A DNA stretch of 64,000 nt. Origin: Betaproteobacteria bacterium RIFCSPLOWO2_02_FULL_63_19. Its GTDB lineage: Bacteria; Pseudomonadota; Gammaproteobacteria; Burkholderiales; SG8-39. Position 1 is the first letter of the stretch; every line of letters begins with the position of its first letter. Position numbers and translations under genes: made by a program. The notes under the pieces are model-generated. The model was given only the letters and a program-made list of their open reading frames with translations. It ran no database searches and was not told the origin of the DNA. Positions 10,333 through 64,000 of this stretch are shown in pieces. The stretch is from assembly GCA_001770415.1 (NCBI GenBank), contig MEQX01000069.1, forward strand, positions 9,185 to 73,184. The letters run 5' to 3'.

Positions 10333-10497
10333 GACGGGTGTCCCGGCTCCGAACCTGACGCGAGCAAGAGAATAGCTCGAAGCGCCTCGACGCGCACATT
10401 CAAATAATTTGTGCCGAGAACACGCTCAAGATGGCCGCGGCACGCGGAGGGGCCTTGCGCTACCATGTGCTGCGAATCAACGAGAAGGAGACTAGCC

Positions 10498-46985: not shown

Positions 46986-49900
46986 CTATTTGACGGTGTA
47001 GATCAGGTTATACCTGCCATTAATCAGCATTTCATTCCACGGCACGGTGACGCCAGAATCGACCGTGCCGAGGCCGTAGCCTGCATACACCTGCGCGCCG
47101 ATGAGCGTGCTTAGATTCAGCTCACCTGCGATGTCGATGGTAATTGTCCCTAGAGTGACGGGTGAGGCGAAATAAGCGGGGTTCTGCGGATCATACGGCA
47201 CCCAGGTCCCGCCGGAGTTCTTGAGGTAAACGGCGTTCCCGTACTGCGCCGGAAGCACGACCGCAACGTATATCGTCCCCACTTTACTTTGATCATTTCC
47301 CGAGGCAACGATCGTTCCGACAACGGTCTTGGAAGTGATGTCGCCTGTCGCCGTACCCGACGCGCTGGCGTTTGTGTTGGCAGTCGCGGTGACGGTGCAG
47401 TTCTGGCTGATCGCGCCGGTGGTGAATGTCTTGCCGTCGGCGCCGAGCGTGCCGGAACAGCCGCTCACGCTGTTCACGACGTAGCCGCTCGCGGGAGTGA
47501 CGGTGAAGCTGGTTGTTCCGCCTGAGGCGACCGTCACCGGGCTGGTCTTGTCATAGGTAACGCGGTCGCCGCCGAGCGTGACCTCGTAGCCGCGCGGGGC
47601 CGAACATTGCGCACTGGCGCCGAGCGCACTCTGGCAACTCCAGGTGTACTTGTCGGTGGCGCTGGTGACTTGCGACGGCGTTGCACCGTCCGCGCAAAGT
47701 TGGCCCTCTGGTGTGCCGAAGAATTGCACCTCGGAGAGCCCCGCCCAGGTAGCGGAACCATAGGTTGAGAGCACTTTGAACGTGATAAACCGTCCCTTTC
47801 CGCTGACCGAATAGGCTTTGCCTAGGCCGTCGCTTTCTTCTGCGAACGTAGTTTTCACCGTGCTCGAAACGGTGGAGCCGTCATCGCCCAAGAACAAAAC
47901 ATCCACGTCTTTTATGCCGCGTGTTGTATACAAGGTCTGGCCGTCAAACTCAAAGTAATTCCATACATGAATGGAAGTCACGTTATGAACGCTGCCGAGG
48001 TCGAAGGTGATTGTGAGCGACCCGGCCCCAGTCGTAAAGCTGCCTAACCACATATGGCTAGCAATCTTGTCATGTGTTGATCCTGTTAATCCAATTCCTC
48101 CGATGGCCGCATTCGCGGGTCGCGACGAAAGCTCATGATTCGCACTGGCTTTGACCACTGAAATCATTCCCGATGTGTTGTTGTTGCCTTCCGGGGCGCT
48201 CAGTAGCGGCTCGCTGCCGCTCGCCGGTCCGCACAAGGACGCAGCGTCGCCTCCGACGGTGTGCACCAGTTTAAAGGTGCCGTTCTTCAGCATGTCGTTC
48301 CATGGGGCGACAGCGCTGGTATCCGGCGCACCAATGCCGTAGCCGAGATAAATCTGCGTACCCGCCAGAGCGCTCAAGTTGAGGCCGGTTACGACATCGA
48401 CGCTGTGCTGTCCCAGAGTGACGGCACCGGCGTAAAACGCTGGATTCGCCGCGTCGAATTTCACCCAGCCACCGCTCGCGTTCTTGAGGTAGACGCGATC
48501 GGGCGTGTCCAACGGCGAATCGGCTGCGAACCCCGAGGGCAGGACCGCGGCGACATAGATGGTTCCTGTCTTGCCTTGATCGCTCCCCGAGGCGGTGATT
48601 TCTGCCGTTATGGTCCGGGAGGTGATCTCTCCAGTTGCTGTCGCTTTGAAGCCTGCGGGACGGATGATGGCAGACGCGGTGACGGTGCAGTTCTGGCTGA
48701 TCGCGCCGGTGGTGAAGGTCTTGCCGTCGGCGCCGAGCGTGCCGGAACAGCCGCTCACGCTGTTGACGACGTAGCCGCTCGCGGGAGTGACGGTGAAACT
48801 GGTTCCATCTGAGGTGACCGTCACCGGGCTGGTCTTGTCAAAGGTCACATTTGCGCCGGCGAGCGTGACGGAATAGCCGCGTTTGGCGGAACAAACCGCT
48901 GTGGTGCCGCCGTTTGAACCTTGGCAACTCCAGTTGTACTGGCTTGTAGTGTCCGTGACCTGCGTGGGGTTGCCGCTCGCGCAGAGGTTGTCTGCCGGCG
49001 CGCTCGTCCACAGCGGTGGGTTATCCGGGTTGCTACCGTGATATCTGTCCGCCGAGCCGCAGGCGCCGTAGACGGGGACGGCTGCGACATTCGTGTTTAC
49101 CCCAATGCAGGACACGTCCGACTTGTTATTGGACGCATCCTCCGCCATCAGGCAGACGGTATACACGGGATTCGAAAACGTGCTCGCCGACAGTCCAGCG
49201 ATGGAGAAATTCGTCGGGGTATTGGCGGTCATCGTCCCGCTGCCCGAGGACAGTCCATCCTGGCCAAGTTTGACTTGATCCGCGGATACGCTTGATTGCG
49301 GTAAGGGATACGGAGCGACAAACACGATCCAGTATCCCGTTGCGTTCTCATTACTGGTGCTTGTCAGCATGGTGCTTGTCAGCGTGGTGCCGGTGCTGGT
49401 CGTGGCCGATACGTCAGTACCGCTCAGCGAGGGCGCTGTCGTGTCTGGGGCGGCAGTCGTGGTGAACGCAACGCAGCTCACGCTCGACTGGTTCGTGGAT
49501 CCATCCTCTGCCATCAGGCAGACGGTGTAGCCGGTACTCGCCGACAGTCCAGTGATCGAAAAATTCTTGGGCGTGCTGGCGGTCATCGCGCCGCTGCCCG
49601 AGGTTACGCCGGCGCTCCCGGTGCTGTTCTGCCCCGCTTTGACCTGCGCCTTCGATGGCGCCGTGGCGCCGGTACCCGACAACACGACCCAGTAGCCCGT
49701 TGCGTTCTCATCGCTGGTGCTTGTCAGCGTGGTGCCGCTGCTGCTCGTTGCCGACACGCCGGTGCCGCTCAGCGTGGGCGCGGTGGTGTCTGCGGCGGCG
49801 GTCGTGGTGACATCGACGCAACTGACGCTTGAGAGGTTCGGGATCCCGTCCTCGGCCATGATGCACAGCGTGTAGCCGGTGCTCGCAGAGAGCCCCGTGA

Positions 49901-50719
49901 TCGAAATATCGGTCGGAACAGCGGGGATCATCGGCGCGTTGCCGGAGGCTAGCGCTGCCCCACCGATGCTGTCGAGACCCGCCTTGACCTGCGCGGCGCT
50001 TGGCGCTGTCGCGCCGGTTCCCGCCAGCTCGACCCAGTAGGCGACAGCCAGCTGGTCGCTGGTGCTCGAGAGCGTCGTGCCGCTGCTGGTCGTCCCCGAA
50101 ACCCCGGTGCTGCTCAGTACCGGCGCGTAGGGGTCGGAAAACACCAGGTTGTCGATGACGATGTCGGACCACGCCCCGCCGCCTTGCTTGGTTACCGTAA
50201 ATCCCGTGACCCCGGTCCAAGGGGTTCCGCCGGTGAAGCTGACGCTCGTGCCGCCAGTTGTCGCGGTGGCATCGACGGTGCTACCGCTTCCGCCGATCTG
50301 GGTGAACGTGAACGTATCGCACGTGGTCCGGCACCCCAATACCAGCGATTGCAGATCGATCTTGGTATCGAACGCGAAGGTAAGCGTTGGGGGGAAGGAT
50401 TGATGAAATCGGTGAGATCGTTGGCCAGATTATTGGTGCCGTTCATCCCCCAGTCGCTTACCAGCAGATTGGCGCCGGTGTCGAGGGTAGCGCCCAATGT
50501 GACACCGAAGGCGGTATCGTTGACTTCGGCCGATCCGCCGCCGATCGCCGATTCGAAGGTGAACGTCGGTGAGACGACGGCCCGGGCGAGCGGAGCCGCG
50601 CCGAGCAGGGAAAGAACCAGAACCGCGAAAAGAAAACGCGCCCGATGAACCAGAAACGCGCGGATTACCGACGAAAATTGCCCGCTGCAACGATGCATCA
50701 AACGCACGCCGTTCGACAT
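46986..50719 (-). CDS. Large repetitive surface protein / adhesin; frameshift at the C6 tract (50389-50394)
   Basis: AGGAG RBS and signal peptide; 3 FN3-like repeats, 2 Cys-containing modules each followed by a beta repeat, a discoidin-like domain and a duplicated C-terminal domain. The two ORFs join if C6 becomes C7. Confidence 0.85.
47385..48797. repeat. Near-identical intragenic repeat (47385-47507 and 48675-48797)
   Basis: About 123 nt at offset 1290 with about 2 mismatches, encoding FTVTPASGYVVNSVSGCSGTLGADGKTFTTGAISQNCTVTA. Confidence 0.9.
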
Positions 50720-51223
50720 TTCACTCTCCTGGTGAATATTCTAATAATTCGCGCGTCGGAACTTTGCTCCTCCAGGCGCGATGTCCTTCCTGCAACCGCA
50801 TTGCACAGCCGGCCGACCGCTTCGCAAACAACGGCCGAGCCTACTCACAAAGTGGGGTAGTACGGGACTATCTTGTTGCTGCGAACGCCTTATATCAGAA
50901 ACGGCCGGCAGCGTCACTTGCCGCGTGTCGAAAATGACGTTGTCATGCAATGGGTTGTGCCCGGTTGACGGGCGACGTGCCGTTCCGATTTCGCCGAGCG
51001 CTGGCCAGACCGGAGCGTGGCCGACGGCGCGCGTACGGAGTCCTCGATCCGATTGCGCACGTGATGTAAATCACACCGCGTCACCGCGGGTGGTCCATGA
51101 TTGCATCTTCCCGCCGGAGGAGGACTGCACGCGGCACCGATCGATCGCCGCCACCAGCGTCGAGGTTGCACGGGTCCGGCGATGCGAATACGTTTCCGTT
51201 CACCAATCAGGAGAATGCATACC

Positions 51224-52240
51224 ATGGCAACGCACATTGTGAAAATCGGGGCCGTGCTGCGGACCTTGGCCGTGACGACTCTGCTTGCGGCCGCCGCCGT
51301 CGGCACGGCTGCGCAGGCGCAGACCGCAGGCGGCCCGCCGAAAGACCGGATCTTCCTCACGATCAACAGCGGTCCGCAGGGCTCGGGCTGGTACGTGGTC
51401 TCGGGGCTGATCGCCGAGCAGATCGAGAAGACGTTCCCGAACGCACGCGTGACCAACACGCCGGGTCAGCCGGTCGCCAATACCCGCGCCGTCGACGCGA
51501 AGCGGGCGGACATGGGCACCGAATTCGGCTGGCTGGCGCTCACCGCGATGGAGGGAACGAAGCCTTACAAGAAGCCGGTACACAACGTTGCGGCGATCTC
51601 CGGCCTGTACCCGACGCACTTTCAACTGTTCGCGCGCGCCGATTCGGGCATCAAGTCCTACGCCGATCTCGCCAACAAACGCATCGCCGTGGGCACCGCT
51701 GGAACCTCCGGGGACCGGATGACGCAGCGGATCCTCGCGTTCTACGGACTCAATTACGACAAGATCCGTCAGAACGGCGGCAGCGTCTCGTTCAGCGCGT
51801 ACAACGACGCCAAGCAGTTGATGAGCGACGGCCACCTCGACGCGTTCACGATCTCCTCGACCAAGCCGAACACCCAGGCCGTGGAACTGCAGCTCACGCA
51901 GGACATCCGGCTCATCCCGCTGGAGGAGAAGATCGTCGACCAGTACGTCAAGAAATTCCGCGGTTTCGGCAAGAGCCAGATCGCCGCAGGAACCTACAAG
52001 AACCAGCCGCAGGCCGTCTGGGCGATCAGCGTCCCAGCACTCATCACCGTGCGCAAGGACCTGCCCGAAAACGTGGTCTATTGGATCACCAAGGCGTGGT
52101 GGGACCACGCGAGTCAGATCGGCAAGGCCTACAGCATGGTCAAGGACGATATGGTCGCGAACGTCGCGCTCAAGGATCTCGTGGTGCCGCTGCATCCGGG
52201 CTCCGCGCGGTACTTCAAGGAGATCGGTGTCCTGAAGTAG
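51224..52240 (+). CDS. TAXI family TRAP transporter solute-binding protein
   Basis: Signal peptide; SGPQGSGWY, LYP...Q, IKS.ADL..KRIAVG..G, I.AGTY, VPLHPG..RYFKE. Confidence 0.92.
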   Translation: MATHIVKIGAVLRTLAVTTLLAAAAVGTAAQAQTAGGPPKDRIFLTINSGPQGSGWYVVSGLIAEQIEKTFPNARVTNTPGQPVANTRAVDAKRADMGTEFGWLALTAMEGTKPYKKPVHNVAAISGLYPTHFQLFARADSGIKSYADLANKRIAVGTAGTSGDRMTQRILAFYGLNYDKIRQNGGSVSFSAYNDAKQLMSDGHLDAFTISSTKPNTQAVELQLTQDIRLIPLEEKIVDQYVKKFRGFGKSQIAAGTYKNQPQAVWAISVPALITVRKDLPENVVYWITKAWWDHASQIGKAYSMVKDDMVANVALKDLVVPLHPGSARYFKEIGVLK

Positions 52241-52329
52241 GCTAGACTCGCCCTTCGTGACGACGATGTTTCCTGCGCTCTGGGCGGGCGCCGCCCGGAG
52301 CGCGAGCCGTTGAAGGACGTGGATAGTTC

Positions 52330-54231
52330 GTGCCGGAGCTGACCCAGGAAGCGAAGAAGGGCGCTGAGGAATCCGCGCTCAGCCGCGGATTCACCGCGGT
52401 GTTCCGCACCCTGCTGATCGCCACCTCGCTGTTCCATCTGTGGACCGGCGTCATGGGGCCGTTGGAGAGCTGGCTGCACCGCTCGCTGGCGCTGTCGATC
52501 TATCTTTCGCTGCTGTTCCTGCTGCCGTTCTACAAGAAGCCGGTCACCTGGCTGGCGCTCGTGCGAGTGGCGCCGCTGGTGCTCGCCAGCATCGCCATCG
52601 GCGCCTACATCTGGGTGATCTACGACGATCTTCCCGACAAGCTAGGCAACCTGAACAACTTCGACATGGCGTTCGGCGGCCTGCTGATCGTCGTCGTGCT
52701 GATCGCCGTCAAGCGCGCGATGGGATGGTCGCTGGTCATTCTGGCCCTGGCCTTCCTGATCTACACCCGATACGGCCCCTATTTCCCCGGCATTTTCGGC
52801 CACCGCGGCCTGCCGCTCGCCGCCATCGTCGAGATCATCTTTTTCAACATGGACGGCATCTACGGATTCCCGATCGGAATCATGTCCACGTTCGTATTTC
52901 TGTTCATCCTGTTCGGCGCGTTCTTCGAGAGCATCGGCCTCACCGATCTGCTCGCAAGCCTTGCGCGGTACGTGGCGCAGAGGGTGACCGGCGGGGCGGC
53001 GGTGGCCGCCGTGTTGGCCAGCGCGATCGTCGGCAGCGTTTCGGGCAGCGCGATCTCCAATGTGATGGTCACCGGCGCGTTCACGATTCCGATGATGCGG
53101 CGGGCCGGCTACAGGCCGGAAATGGCGGCGGCGATCGAAGCATCGGCCTCCACGGGCGGGCAGATCATGCCGCCGGTCATGGGCATCGCCGCCTTCGTCA
53201 TGGCCGAGGTCATCGGCATTCCCTACGTCCAGGTCGTGGTCCTGGCCCTGGTGCCGGCGCTGCTGTACTTCCTGGGGGTCGGCTGGAGCGTCTATTTCGC
53301 GGCCAAGCGCGCAGGCATAGGCATCGACCGCGAAAGCGCGCCCGAATCGCTGGGGCGGATCATGCGCTCCAAGGGATTTCTGATCCTGCCGTTGATCGCG
53401 GTCGTGTTGGCGCTGATGACGGGAGCCAGCCTGATGCGCGTCGCGATGGTGGGCATCGTCGCGTCCGTACTCGTCGGGCTGGTCAATCCGCACAAACGCT
53501 TTCGCCTGCGGGAGTTCCTGGACTCGCTCGAGAAGGGGGCCGAGGTCGCCGTTTCGATGGGCGCGGTGCTGGCATGGGTCGGTTTGACGGTGGGGCTGAT
53601 CGCCGCCAGCGGTTTCGGTTCACTGGTGGCAGGGACGCTCGTGCGGTCGGTCGGAGAAAACCTGATTGCAATTCTGCTGATCACCATGCTGATCAGTCTG
53701 GTGCTCGGCATGGGGATGACCACGGTCGCGGTATACGTGACCCTCGCGATCACGGTAGTTCCCGGCCTGGTCGAACTCGGCGTCAACCCCTACGTCGCCC
53801 ACTTTTTCGCGTTCTATTTCGGCGTACTGTCGTTCGTGACCCCGCCGGTCTGCATCGCCACCTACGCGGCGGCCGGCCTTGTCGGTGCCAACCCGACCAA
53901 GGCCGGGTGGGAAGGACTCGCGCTGACCGCGTCGGGGTTTCTGGTACCGTTTGCAGCCGTCTATCAGCCCGCGCTGATGCTGCAGGGAAGCGCGGTGGAA
54001 GCCGTCTCCGCGATCGGCACCGCATTCTTCGGCGTCGTCGCGCTCAGTGCCGGGCTGCAGGGGTATTTCTTCAGCAGAGCAGGAAAGTGGGAACGCGTGG
54101 CGCTGGCCGTGGCGGGCATTCTATTGATCGTTCCGAACCTGGCCGTTTCGGCGGTGGGCGCGTGCCTGTTCGCCGGCATCGGCTGGCTGCAGTACCGCTC
54201 GTTGCGCCGCCGCGCGGTGCCGACGAATTGA
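52330..54231 (+). CDS. TRAP transporter 4TM/12TM fused permease
   Basis: GIYG.P, FILFGAF, SGSAISNV..TG.FTIPMM, EASASTGGQIMPPVMG, LGMG, TPPV. Confidence 0.94.
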   Translation: MPELTQEAKKGAEESALSRGFTAVFRTLLIATSLFHLWTGVMGPLESWLHRSLALSIYLSLLFLLPFYKKPVTWLALVRVAPLVLASIAIGAYIWVIYDDLPDKLGNLNNFDMAFGGLLIVVVLIAVKRAMGWSLVILALAFLIYTRYGPYFPGIFGHRGLPLAAIVEIIFFNMDGIYGFPIGIMSTFVFLFILFGAFFESIGLTDLLASLARYVAQRVTGGAAVAAVLASAIVGSVSGSAISNVMVTGAFTIPMMRRAGYRPEMAAAIEASASTGGQIMPPVMGIAAFVMAEVIGIPYVQVVVLALVPALLYFLGVGWSVYFAAKRAGIGIDRESAPESLGRIMRSKGFLILPLIAVVLALMTGASLMRVAMVGIVASVLVGLVNPHKRFRLREFLDSLEKGAEVAVSMGAVLAWVGLTVGLIAASGFGSLVAGTLVRSVGENLIAILLITMLISLVLGMGMTTVAVYVTLAITVVPGLVELGVNPYVAHFFAFYFGVLSFVTPPVCIATYAAAGLVGANPTKAGWEGLALTASGFLVPFAAVYQPALMLQGSAVEAVSAIGTAFFGVVALSAGLQGYFFSRAGKWERVALAVAGILLIVPNLAVSAVGACLFAGIGWLQYRSLRRRAVPTN

Positions 54232-54248
54232 ACCGGAAAGGAGCGCCG

Positions 54249-54779
54249 ATGTCCGCGCCCGACGACGAGATCGCCTATCACCTGAGCTTCCGCGATGTCA
54301 TCCGCGTGCTGCAACTGGTCGACGCGAGCCCGTTCCTCGACCTGAAGCTGGAGATCGGGGCGCTGAAAGTGCATGTGACGCGCGAGCGGGGCGGGGAGGC
54401 GCCTGCGCCGTCCGCCGCAGCCGACACCGCGCAGTCGAAGGGCGCGCGTGGCGAGTTCGCCGAATCGCCGGCGGAACCGCTCGCCCCGGAGCGTCGCGAG
54501 GTGCCGGAGGGCACCCCTGTCGTCGCGCCGCTCGCCGGCACGTTCTACCGCGCGCCGTATCCGGGCCAGCCTCCGTTCGTGGAAGTCGGATCGGCCGTCG
54601 AAAAAGGTGCCGTGGTGGGCATACTCGAAATCATGAAGCTGATGAATAACGTGCTCGCGCCGTGCGCCGGGGTGATCGCGGCGATCTGCGCCGAGAACGA
54701 GGCGTTCGTCGAAGTCAATCAGGTACTGGCGATCGTCGCGCCGCGCGACCAAGCACGTGGGTCGGAGGGGGCGCGTTGA
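54249..54779 (+). CDS. Biotin carboxyl carrier protein (AccB-like)
   Basis: APLAGTFYRAP.PG.PPFVEVG; EIMKLMN biotinylation site. Confidence 0.93.
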   Translation: MSAPDDEIAYHLSFRDVIRVLQLVDASPFLDLKLEIGALKVHVTRERGGEAPAPSAAADTAQSKGARGEFAESPAEPLAPERREVPEGTPVVAPLAGTFYRAPYPGQPPFVEVGSAVEKGAVVGILEIMKLMNNVLAPCAGVIAAICAENEAFVEVNQVLAIVAPRDQARGSEGAR

Positions 54780-56257
54780 AGCCGCTGCGCGTTCTCGACG
54801 AGAGCCTGCGCATGGGCCAGCAGGCGCTTTGGGCCACGCGCATGAAGACGAAATGGATGCTGCCGATCGCGCCGGTCATGGACCGCGCGGGTTTTTACCA
54901 GGTGGCGGCCATGGCGCCGGTGTCGTTCGAGACCGCGGCGATGTATCTGTACGAGAATCCCTGGGAGCGGCTTCGGCTGCTGCGCCGGCACATGCCGCAT
55001 ACCAGTTTCGACTTCCTGGTGCGCTCGAGAAACGTGGTCGGGTGGGATCTGAAATCCAACGACGTGGTGGAACTTTTTCTGCAGACGCTCTACGCGACCG
55101 GCATTCACGGCATCAAGGTGTTCGATGGCCTGAACGACTACCGGAACGTCGCTTTTCACCTGCAGAAAGGCAAGGAACTCGGCTTTCACGTCAAAGGGCT
55201 GCTGACATTTACCGTAAGCCCGGTGCACACGGACGAGTATTTCGTGGGCAAGGCCCGCGAGCTGGAAGCGCTGGGCGTGGACGCCGTCATCATCGCAGAT
55301 CCCTGCGGCGCCATGCTGCCGGATCGGGCCCGCACGCTGATCGGCCGCGTGCGTGCCGAATTGCCGGCGATGGAACTGCACTTCTCAACGCACCCCAACA
55401 GCGGCGTTTCCACGCCCTGCTATCGGGAGGCCATCCGGCAGGGCATCGACGTGCTGTGGGGAGCATGTACGCCTTTGGCGAACGGACACTCGTTTCCGCC
55501 GCACGCGACGATCGTGCAACTGGCCGCGGAAGAAGGCCGTGCGATCGAACTCGACGAACGCTGCCTGCGGGAAATGGATGACTGGTTCTACTGGGCTGCC
55601 TATCAGGAGCATCGACCGATCGGCAAACCGGCGGAGTTCGATCCCGTCGCCTACGAGCGAACCATCGCCCATCAGATCCCCGGCGGCATGATGTCCAACC
55701 TGGAGAGCCAGTTGGCCGGGCTCGGCATGGCGCACCGGATGCCCGAAGTGCTCGAAGAGGCGGCGCGCGTCAGGGAGGAACTCGGCTACCCGGTCATGGT
55801 CACGCCGTTTTCGCAGTTTGTCGGCGTTCAGGCGACACTGAACGTCGTGACCGGGGACCGGTATTCGTCGGTGCCGCGCGAAATGGTGCTGTATTGCCGG
55901 GGGCACTACGGCCAGTCGCCGGGGCCGATCGATCCGAATGTGCTGGACCGGGTCGTGGGTGATCTGCCGCCGATCGACCCGACCGCGCATTATCACGACA
56001 ACACGATCGAGAAAGCTCGCGCCGCGAGGGGCGATCTGACCGACGAAGAGCTGCTGACGACCTTGTTTCTGAGCCCTGCCGCGCTGGAGACATTCACCAA
56101 GAACAGAAAGCCCATCGAGTGGGACGCGGGCGCCCGCGCGCCTCTGCTGGCCCTGATCGAACAGTTGTGCAGACGACCGAAGCTGCGCGGGGTCGAGGTC
56201 CGCTACGCGGACGTCAGCCTGACGCTGTCCACCGAATCCGGCGGTCCGGCGAGCTGA
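54776..56257 (+). CDS. Pyruvate carboxylase B / oxaloacetate decarboxylase alpha-like carboxyltransferase with a non-canonical active site
   Basis: ATRM, E.PWERLR, FDGLND, SPVHT, HQIPGGMMSNL, VREELGYPVMVTPFSQFVG. The TTG start overlaps the carrier gene stop (TTGA). Confidence 0.9.
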   Translation: MKPLRVLDESLRMGQQALWATRMKTKWMLPIAPVMDRAGFYQVAAMAPVSFETAAMYLYENPWERLRLLRRHMPHTSFDFLVRSRNVVGWDLKSNDVVELFLQTLYATGIHGIKVFDGLNDYRNVAFHLQKGKELGFHVKGLLTFTVSPVHTDEYFVGKARELEALGVDAVIIADPCGAMLPDRARTLIGRVRAELPAMELHFSTHPNSGVSTPCYREAIRQGIDVLWGACTPLANGHSFPPHATIVQLAAEEGRAIELDERCLREMDDWFYWAAYQEHRPIGKPAEFDPVAYERTIAHQIPGGMMSNLESQLAGLGMAHRMPEVLEEAARVREELGYPVMVTPFSQFVGVQATLNVVTGDRYSSVPREMVLYCRGHYGQSPGPIDPNVLDRVVGDLPPIDPTAHYHDNTIEKARAARGDLTDEELLTTLFLSPAALETFTKNRKPIEWDAGARAPLLALIEQLCRRPKLRGVEVRYADVSLTLSTESGGPAS

Positions 56258-56319
56258 TCCCGGTCGACGAGCCGGCCGGATAATAATCTGCACTGATACC
56301 CGAAAAAAGGATACCGACC

Positions 56320-57348
56320 ATGCTGGAACAGTACGTGTCACCCGCAAACAAGATCGTCGATCTGGTTGCGTCGCTGCAGTTTCCGTTCGCCAACGTGAGA
56401 CCAGGCGAAAACGTCATGATCGTGACCGATACCAACATGGACCCTTTGATCTGGCAAGCGATGATGGCCGTGATCCGCTCCAGGGGCGCCGACCCGACGC
56501 TGATGATGTATACGCCGCGCGCGCATCACACGGCCGAACCGACGGCGCCGGTGGCGCACGCGTTGAAGGGATGCGACATCTGCGTTTTCCTGACGACGAC
56601 CGCACTGGCGCACTCGGATTTCTCCGAGAATCGCGGCAACGTCGGCGTGCTGCTTATGGAGGAGGCGAACGTCGAGATACTCACCTCTCCCGGATGTCAG
56701 TTGAACGACGAGGACATGCAGCGGATCCTCGCGAGCGAGCGCTGGGTGCGCGAGTTCTGGATGGAAGGCGGCGATGTCCACGTCGTCACACCGGCCGGCA
56801 CGGATCTGCGGGCCGCGCTGGTGCCCGGCACGAAGCGCAGCGCCTACATCCGCAGGGGCATCCTGGTCCCGGAGGCGGAGAAACGCGGCGTCGGAACCTG
56901 GCCGTTCGGCGAATGCCGGGTCACTCCGCTCGAGGGCAGCGGCGAAGGCCGCGTCGTCTGGGACATCTGCGGCCACGCGCCGCCGGGACGCTATCGCAAA
57001 CCCGTGTCCCTGACCGTGAAGGCCGGGCGCGTGGTCAAGATCGAGGGCGATGGCGAGGCCGACGAGGTCAGGCGGTATCTGGAAACGCACGGCGACGAAA
57101 ACTCCTACGCCGCGCCGGCGGAAATCTCGGTGGGCCTCAATCACAAGGCCACGATCCTGGGCACGGTGCGCAACGACAAGAAGGCCCTGGGCACGGCGCA
57201 CATCGCCATCGGCCGCAGCGACATCGGCGGCAGCATCGTCAGCGCCACGCATTTCGACGGACTGATGGCGCGGCCGACGATCACCGTCAACGGCAAGGCG
57301 CTGATCAGGGAGGGCGTGCTGCAGTTCCCGCCGGGATGGACGCCGTGA
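56320..57348 (+). CDS. M29 aminopeptidase / NicX-like metalloprotein
   Basis: V.PGENVMIVTD, TPAGTDL, WP.GE, AEISVGLN, GTAHIAIG, HFDG...PTITVNG. Confidence 0.85.
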   Translation: MLEQYVSPANKIVDLVASLQFPFANVRPGENVMIVTDTNMDPLIWQAMMAVIRSRGADPTLMMYTPRAHHTAEPTAPVAHALKGCDICVFLTTTALAHSDFSENRGNVGVLLMEEANVEILTSPGCQLNDEDMQRILASERWVREFWMEGGDVHVVTPAGTDLRAALVPGTKRSAYIRRGILVPEAEKRGVGTWPFGECRVTPLEGSGEGRVVWDICGHAPPGRYRKPVSLTVKAGRVVKIEGDGEADEVRRYLETHGDENSYAAPAEISVGLNHKATILGTVRNDKKALGTAHIAIGRSDIGGSIVSATHFDGLMARPTITVNGKALIREGVLQFPPGWTP

Positions 57349-57390
57349 CCAACACGTCCGTGCGCCGCTCGTCCGCGCGTGTCGCGGGCT

Positions 57391-59049
57391 CTAGCCCGCT
57401 CCGGGAATGACCGGGACCAGCAGATGCGAGTCATACCGCCCGCCGCCGCGCACGATATGCCGGCCGGTGTTGCGCAACGGACCGTGCGCGATCATCGGGC
57501 CCTTAGGGGTCAGCTTGTAGAAATCCCGTCCCTGGATCACTGCGCGCAGGCTCTCGCCCTTGTGGAACAGCGTGCTCGAGACCAGGATCTCGATGTCGAT
57601 CGGTACGAACTCGCCGGGGTTCAGGCGCAGCTCGCGCTGGTGCAGCAGCCACGGCTGGTAGTCGGTGGAGCGCACCGGATCGAGCTCGCGGTGAGACACG
57701 CGCAGCCAGCCCAGCGCGACGGGACCGTCGTCGTAGACGGCAAAGAACGCGAACGGCACCTGCTCGCCGGCGGCATCCAGCTTGTGGATCGCGACGAAAA
57801 GGTCCATGTCGTCCCCCTCGCTGGTGGCCACCCACAGCCGCAGTTTCATGTGGCCGGTCAGCTCGGTTTCCTCGGCGAAACGGTGGTCGAACATCGCCCG
57901 GCCTTCGCGCGGGTCGTATTCCACGTCCGCTGGAGAGCTCGTCGCCGACGCGACGAGGGTGCATTCGGCGCAGTCGAGAAACAGCTTCGTATAGCGCGTG
58001 CGCGCAAGCGGAAACTCGTCTTCTGCGCGCATCGTGCCGACATAATGGCGTTCGCGCACCTCGATGTTGACCGTTGGCCAGTCGAGCACTTCGTTCCGCG
58101 TTTCCTTGAGGAAGTGGTCGAAGAACGCCCGTTGTTTTTCGACCATGTCCGGCCGAAGAAAGTACTCCCACTTGTTGCGGCCGTGCACTTCGAGCCACTT
58201 CTGTTTCGAAGACATCTGCTTGAAGCCCTCGACGGTACCTCGCGTGTGCAGGCCCTGGTCTCCCCAGCTGGCGACGACGTAGGCGGGCACCTCGATCAAC
58301 GGGAGATCGGGCGCCTTGCTCTTCCAGTAGGCGTCGAAGAACGGATGCAGGTCTATCATGGCCATCACGTCCTCGACTTCGGTGCTGGAGTAGAGGGAAC
58401 GCTCCAGCCAGGTCGGCATGAACAGATTTTCCGGAATGCCGCCGTGCTTGGCGCGCTCCCGGTAGGAATCGCTGTATCCCTCCCACGGATTGATCGCAGC
58501 AAGATGGGGCGGACGCAATGCTGCGACCTGCCACTGCATGATGGCGAGGTACGAGACCCCCGAGCATCCGACTTTGCCGTTGCTCCACGGCTGCACGGCG
58601 ACCCACTCGATCAGGTCGTAGTAGTCCTTCGCTTCGTCGGCCGACCAGAACGTCGCCTTGCCTTCGGAATACCATGTACCCCGCGGATCGACGTTGATGA
58701 TCGCATAGCCGTGCCGCGTCCAGTACAGCGGATCAGGGGCTTCGAAGGCCGCATGGCGCGACACCCACTCGGGCCTGACGCCGCCGTTGTCGTGGAAACG
58801 CGCATAGGTGCCACGCGGGGAATGTTTTCCATAGGGGCCCCACGCGATCAAAGTGGGCAATCCCCCAGTCTTGTCGTCGGGCCGGAAGATATCCACGAAG
58901 ATGCGGACGCCGTCGCGCATCGGCACGGCCACGTCGCGCTCGATGCTCATCCCGTCTTCGCGGCTGACGCGGTATCCGCGCTCGGCATTCGCCAGCTTCC
59001 CCGGCGGCTTGCCGGGGCGGAAAATGTACTCGAAGGTCTCCTTCGACAT
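57391..59049 (-). CDS. CocE/NonD family hydrolase (peptidase S15)
   Basis: VPMRDGVRI..DIFRP, PYGK, VDPRG...SEG, QPWSNGKVG..GVSY, GWLRVSHR. Confidence 0.93.
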   Translation of the reverse strand: MSKETFEYIFRPGKPPGKLANAERGYRVSREDGMSIERDVAVPMRDGVRIFVDIFRPDDKTGGLPTLIAWGPYGKHSPRGTYARFHDNGGVRPEWVSRHAAFEAPDPLYWTRHGYAIINVDPRGTWYSEGKATFWSADEAKDYYDLIEWVAVQPWSNGKVGCSGVSYLAIMQWQVAALRPPHLAAINPWEGYSDSYRERAKHGGIPENLFMPTWLERSLYSSTEVEDVMAMIDLHPFFDAYWKSKAPDLPLIEVPAYVVASWGDQGLHTRGTVEGFKQMSSKQKWLEVHGRNKWEYFLRPDMVEKQRAFFDHFLKETRNEVLDWPTVNIEVRERHYVGTMRAEDEFPLARTRYTKLFLDCAECTLVASATSSPADVEYDPREGRAMFDHRFAEETELTGHMKLRLWVATSEGDDMDLFVAIHKLDAAGEQVPFAFFAVYDDGPVALGWLRVSHRELDPVRSTDYQPWLLHQRELRLNPGEFVPIDIEILVSSTLFHKGESLRAVIQGRDFYKLTPKGPMIAHGPLRNTGRHIVRGGGRYDSHLLVPVIPGAG

Positions 59050-59233
59050 GCTTTTCCTCCCCACCGTGCTGCGGCTCGCGAACTGAACCGGCCACCGCGA
59101 GCGCGCTCATGTTTTCCGGCACATCCGGTGCCGGGTGCACTGCATCTTATGCTATTTTCGAATGCCAATGCACCCGCTCGAAGGAGGCAGCGAAGCGGGT
59201 GATGGGCAGGCATCGGAGTCGAGGGATAGGGAC

Positions 59234-60100
59234 ATGCTCGTCGATATCGTGAGCGTGCAGACGCGGGACGGGATCACGCTGCACGGCAGTCACCGGGGCG
59301 CGCGCACCGGCGTGGTGTCGGCGCTGCCGATCGACGTGCTGGTGATGCACCACGGAGTCGCCGGCAACTTCTATGGCAGCGACCTGTTCGACGACCTGAG
59401 CGATCTGGTCGTGGCTGACGGCTGCGCGGTGATCCGGGCGAACAATCGTGGGCACGATCTGGCAAGCTGGGCCGTCGATGCCGTCGGGCGTACGCGCAGC
59501 GGTGCCGCATACGAGATCATGGCCGATTCGCTTCACGATTGGGATGCGTGGATCGGGTTTGCGGCAGATCTGGGGTACGAGCGCATCGGCGTGCTCGGCC
59601 ACAGCCTGGGCGCGACAAAGACGATCTGTTATTTCGGCAACCGCGGTGACGAGAGGGTGCGGCTGGCGGTCGCGCTTTCGCCGCCCCGGCTGTCGTACAG
59701 CGCGTTCCTGCGTTCTCCTGATGGAGCCGAATTCAGCAGGTACGTGGAGACGGCGCGCAAGCGGATCGAAACCGGAGATCGCAACGCGCTGATCGACGCG
59801 GCGCTGCCGATGCCGTTCCTGGGGTCCGCGGCGACGTATTACGATAAGTACGGACCCGAGGAGCGCGTCAACATGCTGAAGCACCTGCCCAACGTGAAGC
59901 TGCCGTTGCTTGCGATGCATGGAACGACGGAGGCCGCCACGGAACTGGCGATGCGCGGCGTGCCGGAGGAACTGATGCGGCTGGCCGACGAGATTCCCAA
60001 CTTCCACTACGCGGTCGTGCCCGAAGCCGATCACTTCTATACCGGGCTGCGTCCGAAGGCGTGGAGCATCGTCCGCGACTGGCTGATGAGCCAGTCGTAG
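59234..60100 (+). CDS. Alpha/beta hydrolase
   Basis: TRDGITLHG, HG..GNFY, NNRGHD, GHSLG nucleophile elbow, ADHFY. Confidence 0.88.
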   Translation: MLVDIVSVQTRDGITLHGSHRGARTGVVSALPIDVLVMHHGVAGNFYGSDLFDDLSDLVVADGCAVIRANNRGHDLASWAVDAVGRTRSGAAYEIMADSLHDWDAWIGFAADLGYERIGVLGHSLGATKTICYFGNRGDERVRLAVALSPPRLSYSAFLRSPDGAEFSRYVETARKRIETGDRNALIDAALPMPFLGSAATYYDKYGPEERVNMLKHLPNVKLPLLAMHGTTEAATELAMRGVPEELMRLADEIPNFHYAVVPEADHFYTGLRPKAWSIVRDWLMSQS

Positions 60101-60825: not shown

Positions 60826-61818
60826 ATGAACGAAATCGACCTGACGATATCGACGTGGGACTACGACCGTGTGCGCGCGCTGATCGACGGGCGCGTCCGG
60901 GTCGAAGGTTGCCGCCTGAACTACATTGCACTGAGCCCGGAGGAGTGTTTCCACCGCGGTCATTTTTTCAAGGAGTTCGAGGCCACGGAAATCGGTTGCA
61001 GCTTCTACCTCAACGCGATTTCGATCGGCGACCTTTCCTACCGCGCAATTCCGGTCTTCCTTTCACGTACCTTCCGGCATTCCGGAATTTATGTCCGGAG
61101 CGACAGCGGAATCAAGACGCCCGGGGATCTGAGAGGTCGCCGGGTTGGAGTACCCGAGTACCAGATGACGGCGGCGATCTGGATTCGCGGCATGCTCAAG
61201 GACCAGTTTGGCGTCGACTACGCCGACATCAACTGGGTCGAAGGCGGGCTCGAGGAATGGGGCCGCAAGAGCAAGATCAAGCTGACGCTGCCGCCTGGAT
61301 TCCCGCTGGAACAATCGCCGCAGGGCCGGTCGCTGAACCAAATGCTTGTGGCGGGCGATCTCGATGCCGTGATCGGCGCGCGAGCCCCGTCGTGCTTCAT
61401 CGAAGGTGATCCGCGCGTGCGCCGCCTGTTCGATGACTTCAAGAGCGCTGAGAAGGAATATTTCGCGCAATCGGGGATATTCCCCATCATGCATTGCCTG
61501 GCCATCCGCGGTGACGTCGCCGACAGGCATCCCTGGCTCGCCACCAGCCTCTTGAAGGCATTCGAAGAAGCCAAACGCATAGCCGACCAAGACCTGGAAG
61601 AGGTGGCCGCGCTGAAAATCGGGCTACCGTGGCTGGCACAGGAACTGGCCGAGACCAAGGCGGTGATGGGCGAGAACTTCTGGTCCTACGGCGTGCCGGA
61701 CAACCGGAAAACGCTGGACGCGATGGTCCGCTACGCGTACGAGCAGGGCGTCGCGGCGCGCCCGCTCAAGATGGAAGAGGTGTTCATCGCTTCGACCGTG
61801 AACACCGCGAAGATCTGA
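60826..61818 (+). CDS. 4,5-dihydroxyphthalate decarboxylase-like protein (substrate-binding-protein fold)
   Basis: DYDRVRALIDGRV, IPVFLSR.FRHS, GVPEYQMTAA.WIRG, GIFPIMH, WSYG. Confidence 0.88.
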   Translation: MNEIDLTISTWDYDRVRALIDGRVRVEGCRLNYIALSPEECFHRGHFFKEFEATEIGCSFYLNAISIGDLSYRAIPVFLSRTFRHSGIYVRSDSGIKTPGDLRGRRVGVPEYQMTAAIWIRGMLKDQFGVDYADINWVEGGLEEWGRKSKIKLTLPPGFPLEQSPQGRSLNQMLVAGDLDAVIGARAPSCFIEGDPRVRRLFDDFKSAEKEYFAQSGIFPIMHCLAIRGDVADRHPWLATSLLKAFEEAKRIADQDLEEVAALKIGLPWLAQELAETKAVMGENFWSYGVPDNRKTLDAMVRYAYEQGVAARPLKMEEVFIASTVNTAKI

Positions 61819-62209: not shown

Positions 62210-64000
62210 TCATACGCGCGTCGAGATCGATCTTAGACGCATCAGTTTCGGCGAGATCGCGACCGCAGTCGCGCCTAGACCTGCAGCGGGGAAGACGATT
62301 CCCGGAGCGATCAACAAGAGGCCACCGGCCAGGACAACCAGTCGCTGAAACGAATTGAGCGAGCCGAAAAGATATCCCTGTATTCCCGCTGCGACCAGAG
62401 CCGAACCGACAAAGGCCGTTCCGCCGGCCAGGGCAACTTGGCCTACAGAGCCGTTCATCAACAGCCTGTCGTTGAAGACAAACGCGAACGGGATCAAATA
62501 GGCTGCAATGCCGATCCGCATTGCCTCCCAGCCAGTCTGCCACACCTTGCTGTTTGCGATGCTTGATGTGACGAAAACGGCGATGCAGGTCGGTGGCGTA
62601 TAGAAAGACGCGAGCCCCCAATAAATGACGTAGAGATGCGCCGCCATTTCCGAGACGCCCAGGCGCACTAATGCGGGTGCCATCAAGGTTGCGAGAGTCA
62701 CGTACGCCGGCGTCGCGTCGAGCCCCATACCAACGACCAGACTGACGAGCCCGACGAACACTAGGGTCAGAAGCAAATTGCCGCCCGCAAGTTCGACGAT
62801 GAAGCGAGAGACTTTTATTCCTACGCCAGAGAGTTCAAGCGCGCCGATCATGATTCCAACGGCCGCGGTAATCGACGCGACGGTGATCCAGCGATGAACT
62901 CCCTCGTCGAACGCCGATACGATTCTCCGCGGAGTCAACCAAAGCGAGGGGTCGCGCGAAACGAAGCTGGTTGCCACGACAAATCCGCACGCATAAATGC
63001 CGGCCATTCCGGGCGGATAAGAGCTGATGATCAGGAAATAGACCAGGGCAGCGACTGGAATCATGTAATACCAGCCGCGTCTGAATACCGGCCAGAAACG
63101 CGGCAGCTCGGCTTCTGCGAGCGCCTTTATCCCGGCTTTTTTCGCCTGCAGATGTACCGAAACGAAGACGATCAGAAAATAGAGGAAGGCCGGAACGAGC
63201 GCAGCCGCGACCACCGCGGAATAGGAAACCTCGATCCACTCCGCCATAAGGAAGGCCATCGCGCCCATGACCGGCGGAAGGATGATCCCGCCGGTAGACG
63301 CGACCGCCTCGACCGCTGCAGCGAAGGCGGGTGTATAGCCGATCGACTTCATCATCGGAATCGTGAAGACGCCGGTGGTGGCGGCATTGCTGGAAGGCGA
63401 CCCCGAAATCGAGCCGAACATGGCACTTGCCACAACCGCCGCCTTGGCGGGGCCTCCGCACAACCTTCCAGTGAGCGCCAGAGCCGTGTCCATGAACCAG
63501 CGGCTTGCGCCCGCGGCCTGCATCAGCGCGCCAAAGATGAGGAATACGATGATGATATTGGCGGCGATGCCGAGGGGAAGTCCGAATATGCCGGCGCTTC
63601 CGACGTAGGAACTGTAGAGCAGGCGATGGAGCGGATAGCCGCGGCCATACAAGAGCCCGGGCAGATATCTCTGGAAGATCGTAACTAAAACGAAAAAGAG
63701 AATAATGACCGGTAATGCCCATCCGGTCGTTCGCCGCACCGCCTCAAGCAGGGGAATTACCAGCATCATCGACAGGACCATGCCGGCTGTATCCAGATAG
63801 CCGTACTCGGCATAGTTCAGAATGCTCTGATAGGAGAATATGACGAAACACGTGCTGACGAGAGTAAAACCCAGCAGGAGATAGTCGTACCAACGCACCC
63901 GTGGTGGCCGCCGTTCGTCGTTGGCGCCACCTACCTGCCGCGCTCGATGCGCCGGCAGCGTCAGAAAGATCAACGTCATCGCCGCGCTGAGGCTAACGGC
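62210..64000 (-). CDS. TRAP transporter 4TM/12TM fused permease (5' end outside the window)
   Basis: GIFGLPL, GGPAKAAVVAS, EAVASTGG...PPVMGA, GMG, TPP. Confidence 0.93.
   Translation of the reverse strand, partial: AVSLSAAMTLIFLTLPAHRARQVGGANDERRPPRVRWYDYLLLGFTLVSTCFVIFSYQSILNYAEYGYLDTAGMVLSMMLVIPLLEAVRRTTGWALPVIILFFVLVTIFQRYLPGLLYGRGYPLHRLLYSSYVGSAGIFGLPLGIAANIIIVFLIFGALMQAAGASRWFMDTALALTGRLCGGPAKAAVVASAMFGSISGSPSSNAATTGVFTIPMMKSIGYTPAFAAAVEAVASTGGIILPPVMGAMAFLMAEWIEVSYSAVVAAALVPAFLYFLIVFVSVHLQAKKAGIKALAEAELPRFWPVFRRGWYYMIPVAALVYFLIISSYPPGMAGIYACGFVVATSFVSRDPSLWLTPRRIVSAFDEGVHRWITVASITAAVGIMIGALELSGVGIKVSRFIVELAGGNLLLTLVFVGLVSLVVGMGLDATPAYVTLATLMAPALVRLGVSEMAAHLYVIYWGLASFYTPPTCIAVFVTSSIANSKVWQTGWEAMRIGIAAYLIPFAFVFNDRLLMNGSVGQVALAGGTAFVGSALVAAGIQGYLFGSLNSFQRLVVLAGGLLLIAPGIVFPAAGLGATAVAISPKLMRLRSISTRV

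Follow-up and report, generated by a model that had tools for sequence, protein, structure and literature searches.

Within a 64,000-nucleotide stretch of the genome of Betaproteobacteria bacterium RIFCSPLOWO2_02_FULL_63_19 (hereafter, the window), we found a carboxyltransferase-like (CT) subunit in which three of the four residues that usually bind the metal are gone. Its phylogeny places it in a large and conserved branch of stand-alone biotin-enzyme carboxyltransferases that probably do without the usual metal centre and act on a substrate other than the textbook one. To our knowledge, a cation held by an Asp, a carbamylated Lys, and two His residues polarises the substrate carbonyl in every solved carboxyltransferase of the pyruvate carboxylase (PC)/OadA/5S type. 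In the numbering of R. etli PC, we take D549, carbamylated K718, H747, and H749 to be the metal ligands, and R548, Q552, and R621 to handle substrate and biotin. The explanation that we favour, with a probability of roughly one in two, is that the CT works without the canonical Asp/carboxy-Lys/His/His site as the active carboxyltransferase subunit of a multi-subunit biotin carboxylase, the substrate of which would be a carbonyl acid other than pyruvate that is taken up by import. This explanation builds on direct observations, namely the residue changes, the intact predicted fold, the clade structure, the linkage of the genes, and the purifying selection.

Ligand losses in an intact carboxyltransferase gene

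The CT reading frame starts with a TTG codon, which shares bases with the TGA that ends the biotin carboxyl carrier protein (BCCP) gene upstream (TTGA), and its N-terminus agrees with homologues starting MKxLRVLDES. The protein scored 123.5 bits against the PYC_OADA "conserved carboxylase" domain (PF02436; cut-off, 27) and 22.9 bits against the Pfam HMGL-like TIM barrel, i.e., under the cut-off of 29. Its AF2 model (pLDDT, 90.8) displays an intact fold, for which Foldseek returned a TM score of 0.83 to 5ks8, 1rqb, and 2nx9, with an rmsd of 2.5 A on transcarboxylase 5S (1rqb). The match to NCBIfam NF006761 (pyruvate carboxylase subunit B) covers model positions 2-445 of 591, leaving no fused C-terminal BCCP domain, and reached 395.8 bits, below the curated cut-off of 402; the score against TIGR01108 (OadA) was 353.8 bits, versus a cut-off of 756.5. 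By curated thresholds, the CT is neither a pyruvate carboxylase nor an OadA. The true pyruvate carboxylase of the same genome (contig C63) retains D/K/H/H.

HMMER/phmmer was used to align the CT to three solved relatives, namely the beta subunit of a two-subunit PC (5ks8_C), OadA (2nx9_A), and transcarboxylase 5S (1rqb_A), and the phmmer alignments contained no gaps around the motifs. They set LRMGQQ opposite LRDGHQ/LRDAHQ, with Met13 (ATG, 54812-54814) in place of the Asp ligand and Gln15 in place of His; IIADPCG opposite IKDMA, with Ala174 replacing the carbamylated Lys; and HFSTHPNSG opposite HLHAHATSG/HLHCHSTAG, with Ser204 (TCA, 55385-55387) replacing the first His. H206 is the sole ligand that remains of the canonical cation site. 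The initial annotation had proposed this loss of D/K/H, which the three alignments bear out as M13/A174/S204 at exactly the codons it named (54812, 55295, and 55385). It was also right that the substrate- and biotin-handling set (Arg, Gln, Arg, and the catalytic Thr) is preserved: the alignments to 5ks8, 2nx9, and 1rqb identify R12, Q16, R83 (LVRSRN opposite LLRGQN), and T343 (VTPFSQ opposite VTPTSQ). Over 69 sequences, no variation occurs at T343, R83, or Q16, and R12 is conserved to at least 90%; two family alignments show H206 and D175 unchanged throughout.

The small residue of the biotin pocket (Ala; A49 in MfPC, A610 in HsPC) is missing, its position being occupied by Val49 both in the clade of the window CT, termed here the MASH clade after its residues at the four ligand positions, and in the sister clade. 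According to the respective reports, the cation of L. lactis PC is bound by Asp534, carboxylysine 703, His732, and His734 (PMC9581989), Thr882 is termed catalytically essential (PMC5895798), and the A49T variant of MfPC has essentially no activity, reportedly owing to blocked biotin (PMC5059739). Given Val49, the canonical biotin pose may not fit the CT.

Table 1. Features of the CT locus and its flanks (window positions)
Feature	Position	Strand	Evidence or remark
Promoter-like sites upstream of TAXI gene, possible operon start (weak)	50713..50748	+	3 sigma-70-like matches
TAXI-family TRAP solute-binding protein	51101..52240	+	Pfam NMT1_3, 1.4e-59; related to TAXI structures 1us4, 8s4j
TRAP transporter fused permease (DctM type)	52330..54231	+	DctM, 2.9e-75
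Stand-alone BCCP, 176 aa, biotinyl-Lys motif LEIMKLMN	54249..54779	+	Biotin_lipoyl, 3e-14
CT-like TIM-barrel subunit, 493 aa	54776..56257	+	Only one of four canonical metal ligands left; PYC_OADA, 123.5 bits
E9 codon	54800..54802	+	Acidic residue specific to Lys-less branch; Val in Lys-containing relatives
R12-M13-G14-Q15-Q16	54809..54823	+	Asp ligand to Met, neighbouring His to Gln; R12, Q16 retained
V49 codon, position of MfPC A49/human PC A610, biotin pocket	54920..54922	+	MAPVSFE vs GGAVFD
R83-S84-R85	55022..55030	+	Substrate Arg retained, plus additional branch-defining Arg
A174 codon (GCA), carbamylated-Lys position	55295..55297	+	Alignment, codon comparison
S204-T205-H206	55385..55393	+	First His ligand to Ser, second His retained
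T343 codon, equivalent of catalytic Thr (R. etli Thr882)	55802..55804	+	Alignment
M29/NicX-like protein, 342 aa, with E198, E268, H294, H311, D313	56320..57348	+	Conserved partner gene
CocE/NonD (S15) family hydrolase, convergent neighbour	57391..59064	-	Uncertain link to CT system

Each of the three ligand changes requires at least two base changes, and contigs from a soil metagenome of a different study (X3) and from another groundwater run (X4) show no difference at the three codons. Fifteen related loci encode the same residues with differing synonymous codons (Ala GCA/GCG/GCC; Ser TCA/TCC/TCG), the tally over related loci being 16/16 for M, 16/16 for A, and 15/15 for S. Among 20 protein-database members with at least 73% identity, M occurs in all 18 with data, A in 19 (one has G), and S in 18 (two have A). 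The median NG86 dN/dS of the CT gene is 0.107 (55 pairs). These data agree with the earlier statements that the gene is intact and that single sequencing errors are unlikely, and they answer a check proposed at that stage: M/A/S does mark a clade under purifying selection (dN/dS, ~0.11). That the changes stem from an error of sequencing or assembly, or that the gene is a pseudogene in decay, is refuted by the frame that stays open over 493 codons, the concordant independent contigs, the 15 further loci, and the strong purifying selection, and we give it practically no weight.

Known relatives and the Lys-less branch

The best match to the CT in both sequence and fold is PycB of Methylobacillus flagellatus (5ks8; phmmer, 3.2e-82; Foldseek TM, 0.83; 34% identity). 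The two proteins share a TIM barrel plus funnel and the R, Q, R, and T residues, and PycB works with a separate biotin carboxylase (BC). PycB, however, has D/Kcx/H/H and a fused C-terminal BCCP domain (~600 aa in total), whereas the window CT reads M/A/S/H, carries Val where PycB has A49, and lacks a BCCP domain. OadA of Vibrio cholerae (2nx9) and transcarboxylase 5S (1rqb) likewise have their domain family and fold in common with the CT but, unlike it, carry a full metal site in the alignments.

None of the best 120 of 2,964 database matches (at least 48% identity), which are spread over Proteobacteria, Actinomycetota, Bacillota, and others, has Lys at the carbamyl-Lys position. A tree of 205 sampled sequences, with the PC of the source genome as its root, groups the 152 Lys-less ones in a single clade (support, 0.908). 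The residue two positions past the substrate Arg is Arg (R85) in all 151 Lys-less sequences with data, and it is non-Arg (mostly Q; also K, T, and other) in 52 of the 53 Lys-containing ones; the sole exception, which reads R, is a poorly aligned paralogue from the source genome. Position 9 is E in 99% of the 152 Lys-less sequences, compared to V in 72% of the 53 Lys-containing ones, and T343 is T in 100% of the Lys-less set.

The tree places the loss of the Lys at the base of this larger monophyletic branch, along with the Gln-to-Arg change two residues past the substrate Arg, and places the loss of the Asp later, only in the MASH clade and some relatives. The first His is replaced across most of the Lys-less branch, but the sister N-S-H-H clade has it. 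The idea of a coordinated ligand loss, put forward in the initial annotation, does not hold in the sense of one event. Each clade has its own fixed set of residues at the former ligand positions (MASH, NSHH, TSFH, DAVH, DYNH, DEQH, and others).

At the loci of the Lys-less branch, a BCCP gene is adjacent in most cases and a BC gene in many. In other Lys-less clades, the neighbourhood comprises an SDR, a thiolase, and a CoA ligase or CoA-transferase, as one would expect of a pathway in which carboxylation yields a beta-keto acid. Our literature search found no description of a PC-type CT without the carbamylated Lys, nor of one paired with an M29 protein.

Operon context and the M29/NicX-like partner

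The order of the operon in the window is TAXI-TRAP transporter, BCCP, CT, and M29-like gene (Table 1). The three sigma-70-like matches upstream of the TAXI gene compare to a shuffle mean of 1.0, no internal terminator signal above chance was found in the operon, and the stop of the fused permease lies 18 nt upstream of the BCCP start. An Rfam scan of positions 50000-57700 returned no match, so there is no riboswitch to name a ligand. Comparison of the TAXI binding protein to the PDB returned distant TAXI structures only, and we infer no ligand from them.

The BCCP scored 94.2 bits against TIGR00531, under the cut-off of 115.2. The motif LE[IV]MKLMN occurs in 14/14 clade loci, including those that have no BC, and the median dN/dS of the gene is 0.31. 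A tblastn search of the window locus (48-61 kb) found no BC; BC is also absent from five related loci (L096, L098, L099, L103, and L014) and reduced to a C-terminal remnant in L104, and a cis BC is present in 7 of the 13 assessable loci of the MASH clade. Since none is encoded in cis, ATP-dependent carboxylation at the window locus would need a trans BC, and the source genome holds two candidates, i.e., AccC (contig C10) and a second BC (contig C58). No OadB/OadG, 12S partner, or second carboxyltransferase was found among the annotated neighbours. The CocE/NonD hydrolase gene also lies downstream in L104 and is absent from the other loci.

In the MASH and NS(T)HH clades, every one of the nine genome loci carries the M29-like gene, compared to none of 68 other loci. 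The gene lies downstream of the CT gene in the window and in 11 of the 12 other clade loci with a downstream flank; in L092, a 1.8-kb contig, the 278 nt that follow the CT contain no such frame. The median dN/dS of the gene is 0.13. The protein has no match at E <= 0.01 in the Pfam library searched, and a profile comparison matched it to NicX (E = 1.6e-24) and weakly to AmpT and PepS; in the Atlas, it falls into PF26233 NicX clusters (TM, 0.85). Its likeness in sequence and fold is to NicX (2,5-dihydroxypyridine dioxygenase, 7cn3) and to M29 aminopeptidases (AmpT, 2ayi; PepS, 4icq). E198, E268, and H294 align with the AmpT motifs PTEE, GEV, and SHIAFG, and these three residues are conserved in the MASH clade together with H311 and D313. 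Judged by what we take to be the ligand residues of AmpT, AmpS, and NicX, this E, E, H, H, D set resembles the M29 peptidase site and not that of NicX. We know of no other M29/NicX family member that is the partner of a biotin enzyme, and a literature search returned none.

In the sister clade, H311 and D313 are R and E. A takeover of the CT metal by the partner was considered on these grounds; the pattern is suggestive only and the idea was not adopted. CgnE, a peptide-binding NicX-family protein of crocagin biosynthesis, was set aside as not relevant. A search for fusions among longer M29-like homologues yielded one PAS-GGDEF fusion and none with a CT or BCCP. A complex prediction for the CT and the M29-like protein (69-row alignments) gave a score of 0.01, which is not evidence for or against contact.

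The window system can also be likened to the (phospho)aryl methyl ketone carboxylases HpeCBA, XccBCA, and AcvCDE (PMC9618137). HpeCBA carboxylates the acetyl group of 4-phospho-acetophenone; these enzymes consist of separate BCCP, CT, and BC proteins, as would the window system (with its BC not in cis); they act on non-pyruvate substrates, with carboxylation of a carbonyl beside an anionic handle. The gene neighbourhoods of several Lys-less clades fit the same pathway logic, in which carboxylation precedes activation with CoA and cleavage. The PycB-like CT of Hpe-like clusters on Rhodococcus plasmids also has no Lys (D-E-H-H); it is ~35% identical to the Lys-less member L064 and has no R85. 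The window locus differs from the Hpe type in having the M29-like partner instead of kinase, phosphatase, CoA ligase, and thiolase: no CoA ligase or thiolase gene is present at the window locus, and no kinase (HpeHI-type) or phosphatase (HpeD-type) gene was found among the window neighbours or the clade loci.

Proposed function and its alternatives

In the explanation that we favour, an anionic organic compound would be imported by the TAXI-TRAP system, and the dedicated BCCP would be biotinylated and then carboxylated by a BC, here in trans by the housekeeping AccC or the C58 BC. Carboxybiotin would enter the TIM-barrel CT, where T343 would relay the proton and where R12, Q16, and R83 would hold the carbonyl and the anionic group of the substrate, in the manner of pyruvate carboxylase. 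The branch-specific R85, possibly paired with E9, may have assumed the charge role that the carboxy-Lys/metal centre had before it was lost; the role of R85 is suggested by correlation and sequence position. The four former ligand positions (here M13, A174, and S204) would line the pocket and set specificity, in which case the substrate would not be pyruvate. The M29-type protein, with its full M29-like ligand set, would process the product or prepare the substrate, and the whole would form a carboxylate-then-process module. Counting against an active CT are the missing cis BC, Val49, the changed H15, and the HMGL-like score under the cut-off.

The initial annotation had offered two possibilities, namely a metal-independent enzyme with a non-pyruvate substrate and a non-catalytic binding subunit. 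For the former, the lost canonical site and the non-pyruvate substrate stand as the best reading, based on the purifying selection, the M/A/S clade, and the sub-threshold PC/OadA scores; metal independence of the CT is inferred. A bolder form of the proposal is tentative: an Arg-for-metal swap (R85, perhaps with E9) would define a previously unrecognised metal-free DRE-TIM branch in which the former ligand positions set specificity, and the MASH clade would have joined it to an M29-type dinuclear hydrolase in a "carboxylate-then-cleave" module that acts on an imported carbonyl acid and borrows a housekeeping BC. An example of such a substrate would be an acyl compound or amino-ketone that, once carboxylated, mimics an N-terminal peptide bond.

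The non-catalytic alternative, in which the CT is a pseudo-enzyme that transfers no carboxyl group and serves, for instance, as a scaffold or regulator through binding of BCCP or a ligand, would account for the loss of three of four ligands, for Gln at H15, for Val at a site where an A-to-T change kills PC, and for the missing cis BC. We regard it as improbable, because the catalytic and substrate residues are conserved across the branch, residues at the former ligand positions do not vary within clades, the CT gene has a dN/dS of 0.11, and the operon holds no canonical CT to regulate; moreover, a dedicated BCCP with the biotinyl-Lys motif lies beside the CT, relatives have a cis BC, and the catabolic operons of sister clades need a carboxylated product. 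A slightly better, although still low, chance is given to a module that works without BC, in which the CT would move CO2 from a carboxylated substrate to biotinyl-BCCP, as an OadA-like decarboxylase or shuttle, followed by a discharge possibly aided by the M29-type protein. OadA is among the closest solved relatives, and the missing BC in the window and at least five related loci, with a decaying one in L104, fits such a module; the BC directly beside BCCP in 7 of 13 assessable clade loci and in most loci branch-wide, the two candidate trans BCs in the genome, and the lack of an OadB-like subunit or second carboxyltransferase among annotated neighbours do not.

It is also conceivable, though unlikely, that the CT has the role proposed above and is still a metalloenzyme, with a site rebuilt from H206, D175, and branch acidic residues (E9) or from the substrate's own groups. 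The invariance of H206 and D175 and the restriction of E9 to the Lys-less branch (99% E versus mostly V) are in line with such a site, as are the sister clades with more ligands (N-S-H-H) or with Glu at the Lys position (DEQH and DEHH) and the D-E-H-H arrangement of the Hpe-like CT from the Rhodococcus plasmid. However, only one of the four canonical ligands is left in the MASH clade, Met, Ala, and Ser bind Zn or Mn poorly or not at all in such geometry, and the correlation between loss of Lys and gain of Arg85 suits charge replacement better than re-ligation.

A large branch under selection appears to have dispensed with the cation centre of the PC/OadA/5S carboxyltransferases. If the Lys-less enzymes are active, carboxyl transfer on a TIM barrel would not require a metal, and the substrate range of biotin carboxylases would extend far beyond the textbook list. 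The labels "pyruvate carboxylase subunit B" and "oxaloacetate decarboxylase alpha" would then be wrong for the best 120 matches, and probably also for numerous others among the 2,964. The strict pairing of a CT with an M29/NicX-like protein would represent a new enzyme partnership, and the sister-type module carried on plasmid pDSM109990_c of the cultured Sulfitobacter dubius DSM 109990 makes direct testing feasible.

Metal-site residues of the carboxyltransferase

The gene for the carboxyltransferase-like subunit (CT) begins at a TTG codon that shares bases with the stop codon of the preceding gene (TTGA). Its product matches the Pfam PYC_OADA domain (123.5 bits), with a sub-threshold HMGL-like match (22.9 vs 29). 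The NCBIfam models PycB, OadA, 5S, and PC all match it below their curated cut-offs, with NF006761 at the top (395.8 vs 402). The top PDB relatives identified by phmmer were the two-subunit pyruvate carboxylase (PC) beta chain 5ks8_C (3.2e-82), OadA 2nx9, and transcarboxylase 5S 1rqb. The motif regions of these alignments are gap-free, with LRMGQQ opposite LRDGHQ/LRDAHQ, IIADPCG opposite IKDMA, and HFSTH opposite HLHAH/HLHCH, and therefore the ligand Asp corresponds to M13, the carbamylated Lys to A174, and the first His to S204. According to excerpts of the respective papers, the cation of L. lactis PC is held by Asp, carboxy-Lys, and two His, with the cation-bound water touching pyruvate (PMC9581989), and Thr882 of R. 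etli PC is termed catalytically essential (PMC5895798). The initial annotation had described three replaced metal ligands alongside kept substrate and biotin residues, and the alignments bear out both points as well as its exact codon positions: D, K, and H are not restored, and R12, Q16, R83 (LVRSRNVVGW opposite LLRGQNLLGY), T343 (VTPFSQ opposite VTPTSQ), and the second His (H206) are retained.

The residue changes are real. Contigs from a soil metagenome of a different study and from another groundwater run cover the three altered codons and show no difference there; neighbouring sites do differ. Across the window and 15 related loci from genomes and metagenomes, M (16/16), A (16/16), and S (15/15) are invariant, while synonymous codons vary (Ala GCA/GCG/GCC, Ser TCA/TCC/TCG). 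Of the 20 nearest database proteins, all at 73% identity or more, 18/18 with data carry M, 19/20 carry A (the other has Gly), and 18/20 carry S (Ala in the remaining two). Pairwise NG86 comparison of 11 full-length genes (55 pairs) gave a median dN/dS of 0.107 (maximum 0.143), in keeping with strong purifying selection on the gene, and M/A/S is not unique to this genome. In addition, AlphaFold2 predicts the fold with high confidence (pLDDT 90.8), and the model superposes on 5S, OadA, and PC structures at TM 0.81-0.84. The bona fide PC of the same genome (contig C63) reads D/K/H/H.

A carboxyltransferase branch without the carbamylated lysine

We searched a collection of 5.8 billion proteins, and Lys is absent from the carbamyl-Lys position in each of the best 120 matches (48-100% identity, ~490 aa, without a BCCP domain). 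A genome-collection scan returned 80 loci, and the CT could be read in 78 sequences (the window and 77 loci), of which 34 are Lys-less and 44 retain Lys (43 D-K-H-H and one D-K-V-H; letters denote the Asp, Lys, first His, and second His positions). We inferred a tree of 205 sequences with FastTree, taking the genome's own PC as root, and in it the 152 Lys-less sequences form a single clade (support 0.908). Thus, the annotated ligand loss in an intact gene stands as to the gene, and the loss itself is a family trait instead of a private event. Arg85, two residues past the substrate Arg, occurs in 151/151 Lys-less sequences with data; among 53 Lys-containing sequences, position 85 is non-Arg in 52 (Gln in 40) and Arg in one poorly aligned paralogue. 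E9, W90, G89, K159, T343, and S346 are likewise fixed and specific to the branch.

Residues at the former ligand positions are constant inside clades and vary between them: MASH (the window's clade, 21 leaves), its sister NS(T)HH, TSFH, DAVH, DYNH, DGSH, DEQH/DEHH, and others. Such a pattern would be expected if these positions shape a substrate pocket and not a cation site. Since early-branching clades keep Asp, Lys was lost first, with the gain of R85, and Asp changed to Met later in the window's lineage. Our literature searches found no description of a Lys-less carboxyltransferase branch.

Operon, partner protein, and biotin carboxylase supply

[quoted passage not shown] BCCP adjoins CT in most of the 77 genome loci and biotin carboxylase (BC) in many. 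The conserved set of the window's clade comprises a carboxylate-type transporter (TAXI-TRAP, DctPQM, or TctC), BCCP, CT, and the M29-like protein, with or without BC and often with a GntR/FCD regulator; CoA enzymes are not conserved. A sample of 400 further genomes from the same order gave no CT match at E <= 1e-120, the nearest genome-collection relative (73% identical) lies in a MAG labelled Ideonella sp., and the cluster genes (51101-60100) have GC3 of 0.79-0.86 vs 0.73-0.80 for most other window ORFs. The cluster was likely acquired horizontally. Nearby, an 1117-aa protein rich in Thr, Ser, and Gly, with conspicuous internal repeats and only a weak DUF4457 match, is probably secreted or surface-located, and a second binding protein and permease lie a few kb downstream of the operon.

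Features of the window and of related loci and contigs
Feature	Location	Strand	Remark
Thr/Ser/Gly-rich protein	46986-50339	-	1117 aa
Promoter-like cluster	50713-50748		sole one
TAXI binding protein	51101-52240		
Fused TRAP permease	52330-54231		
BCCP	54249-54779		biotinyl motif LEIMKLMN
CT	54776-56257	+	open frame, 493 codons
M29/NicX-like protein	56320-57348		342 aa
CocE/NonD hydrolase			convergent, after the 342-aa protein gene
Second NMT1/TAXI-like binding protein	60826-61818	+	
Second DctM-type fused permease	62210-63979	-	
BC remnant	L104:2895-3458		187 aa
Extra small biotinyl/lipoyl-domain proteins	L015:6464-6910; L018:6648-7091; L112:6768-7124		sister clade
PYC_OADA paralogues, own genome	C10:18996-20558; C26:28348-31619; C41:23524-24915; C58:4154-5701 and 9671-11209; C89:35160-36623; C105:4241-5725		C26, two adjacent

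The 342-aa protein has no match in the Pfam library searched. A single-sequence search matches it to NicX (7cn3) at 1.3e-6 and a profile search at 1.6e-24; matches to aminopeptidases T and PepS are weak, and the Atlas assigns it to PF26233 (NicX) clusters (TM 0.85). All 9 genome loci from the MASH and NS(T)HH clades carry a relative, against 0/68 other loci; the gene follows CT in the window and in 11/12 other clade loci with flanking sequence, the exception being L092, a 1.8-kb contig. Its median dN/dS is 0.13. E198, E268, and H294 are invariant, opposite the AmpT motifs PTEE, GEV, and SHIAFG. H311/D313 (THFDG), which we take to be an M29/NicX ligand pair, is conserved with the M-A-S-H CT, and Arg/Glu replaces it with the N-S-H-H CT, which keeps two His (window, L014-L034). 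The metal sites of CT and its partner may thus co-vary.

Seven loci of the window's clade (L012, L093, L094, L100, L102, L106, and L107) have BC immediately ahead of BCCP. Within the DNA available for each, none was found in the window, L096, L098, L099, and L103 of this clade or in L014 of the sister clade. L104, a close relative of L103, carries directly upstream of BCCP-CT-M29-like a remnant with only the C-terminal domain (the last ~145 BC residues), apparently a BC in the course of decay. Whether or not BC is present, 14/14 loci keep an intact BCCP biotinyl motif. The window's genome (92% complete) carries three BCs, namely accC (C10, in an aroQ-accB-accC-prmA cluster), a second on C58 flanked by two further CT-like paralogues, and PC itself, and we read the module's BC as supplied in trans. 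A BC-independent, decarboxylase-type module, which the missing BC in cis beside an intact biotinyl motif would also allow, is a live though less probable alternative. In sister-clade (N-S-H-H) modules, an extra biotinyl/lipoyl-domain protein (118-148 aa) lies between the M29-like gene and BC, besides the normal BCCP.

Proposed function and candidate ketone carboxylation pathways

Because the clade's conserved set consists of transporter, BCCP, CT, and M29-like protein, without conserved CoA enzymes, the best reading of these sequences is a self-contained module that would carboxylate an imported anionic carbonyl compound using a CT lacking the canonical metal site. The transporter would import the compound, R12, Q16, and R83 would bind it, T343 would relay a proton, and the carboxylated product would pass to the M29-type metallohydrolase. 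R85, possibly with E9, may stand in for the charge of the lost metal centre, as its perfect co-variation and its place in the sequence suggest. A metal site rebuilt from H206, D175, and E9 is conceivable. Caveats to this reading are Val at position 49, equivalent to A49 of MfPC, whose A49T variant is inactive (excerpt of PMC5059739), Gln in place of H15, and the lack of BC in cis. Of the two options initially annotated, the non-pyruvate enzyme without a canonical metal site is favoured, the non-catalytic subunit being improbable.

A second divergent CT subfamily is present in the same genome: eight more PYC_OADA paralogues (~460-590 aa) retain D/K/H/H without the Arg motif that binds pyruvate. 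The two on C26 adjoin a TAXI and fused TRAP transporter, and the two on C58 stand on either side of a dedicated BC and a thiolase-like gene.

The sole characterised ketone-carboxylating biotin enzyme with three subunits that we found is Rhodococcus HpeCBA, which carboxylates 4-phospho-acetophenone and 4-phospho-acetovanillone at 1 ATP per turnover and has the homologues XccBCA and AcvCDE (PMC9618137). Hpe-like clusters on two Rhodococcus plasmids (L111, R. pyridinivorans pA; L114, R. oxybenzonivorans pRB98) comprise a PEP-utilising/PPDK-like kinase, BCCP, BC, CT, OB-fold, thiolase, phosphatase, and AMP-binding enzyme. The CT in both is PycB-like and reads D-E-H-H (Glu at the carbamyl-Lys position), without R85. 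Other Lys-less clades (L037, L039, L041, L042, L064, L028, and L033) adjoin SDR, thiolase, and DUF35/OB-fold genes together with a CoA ligase or family-III CoA-transferase gene, neighbourhoods that fit the logic of alcohol to ketone to carboxylated beta-keto acid, followed by activation and cleavage. These Lys-less loci, from Burkholderiales, Actinomycetota, and Desulfobacteraceae-type MAGs, may encode pathways for biotin-dependent carboxylation of ketones.
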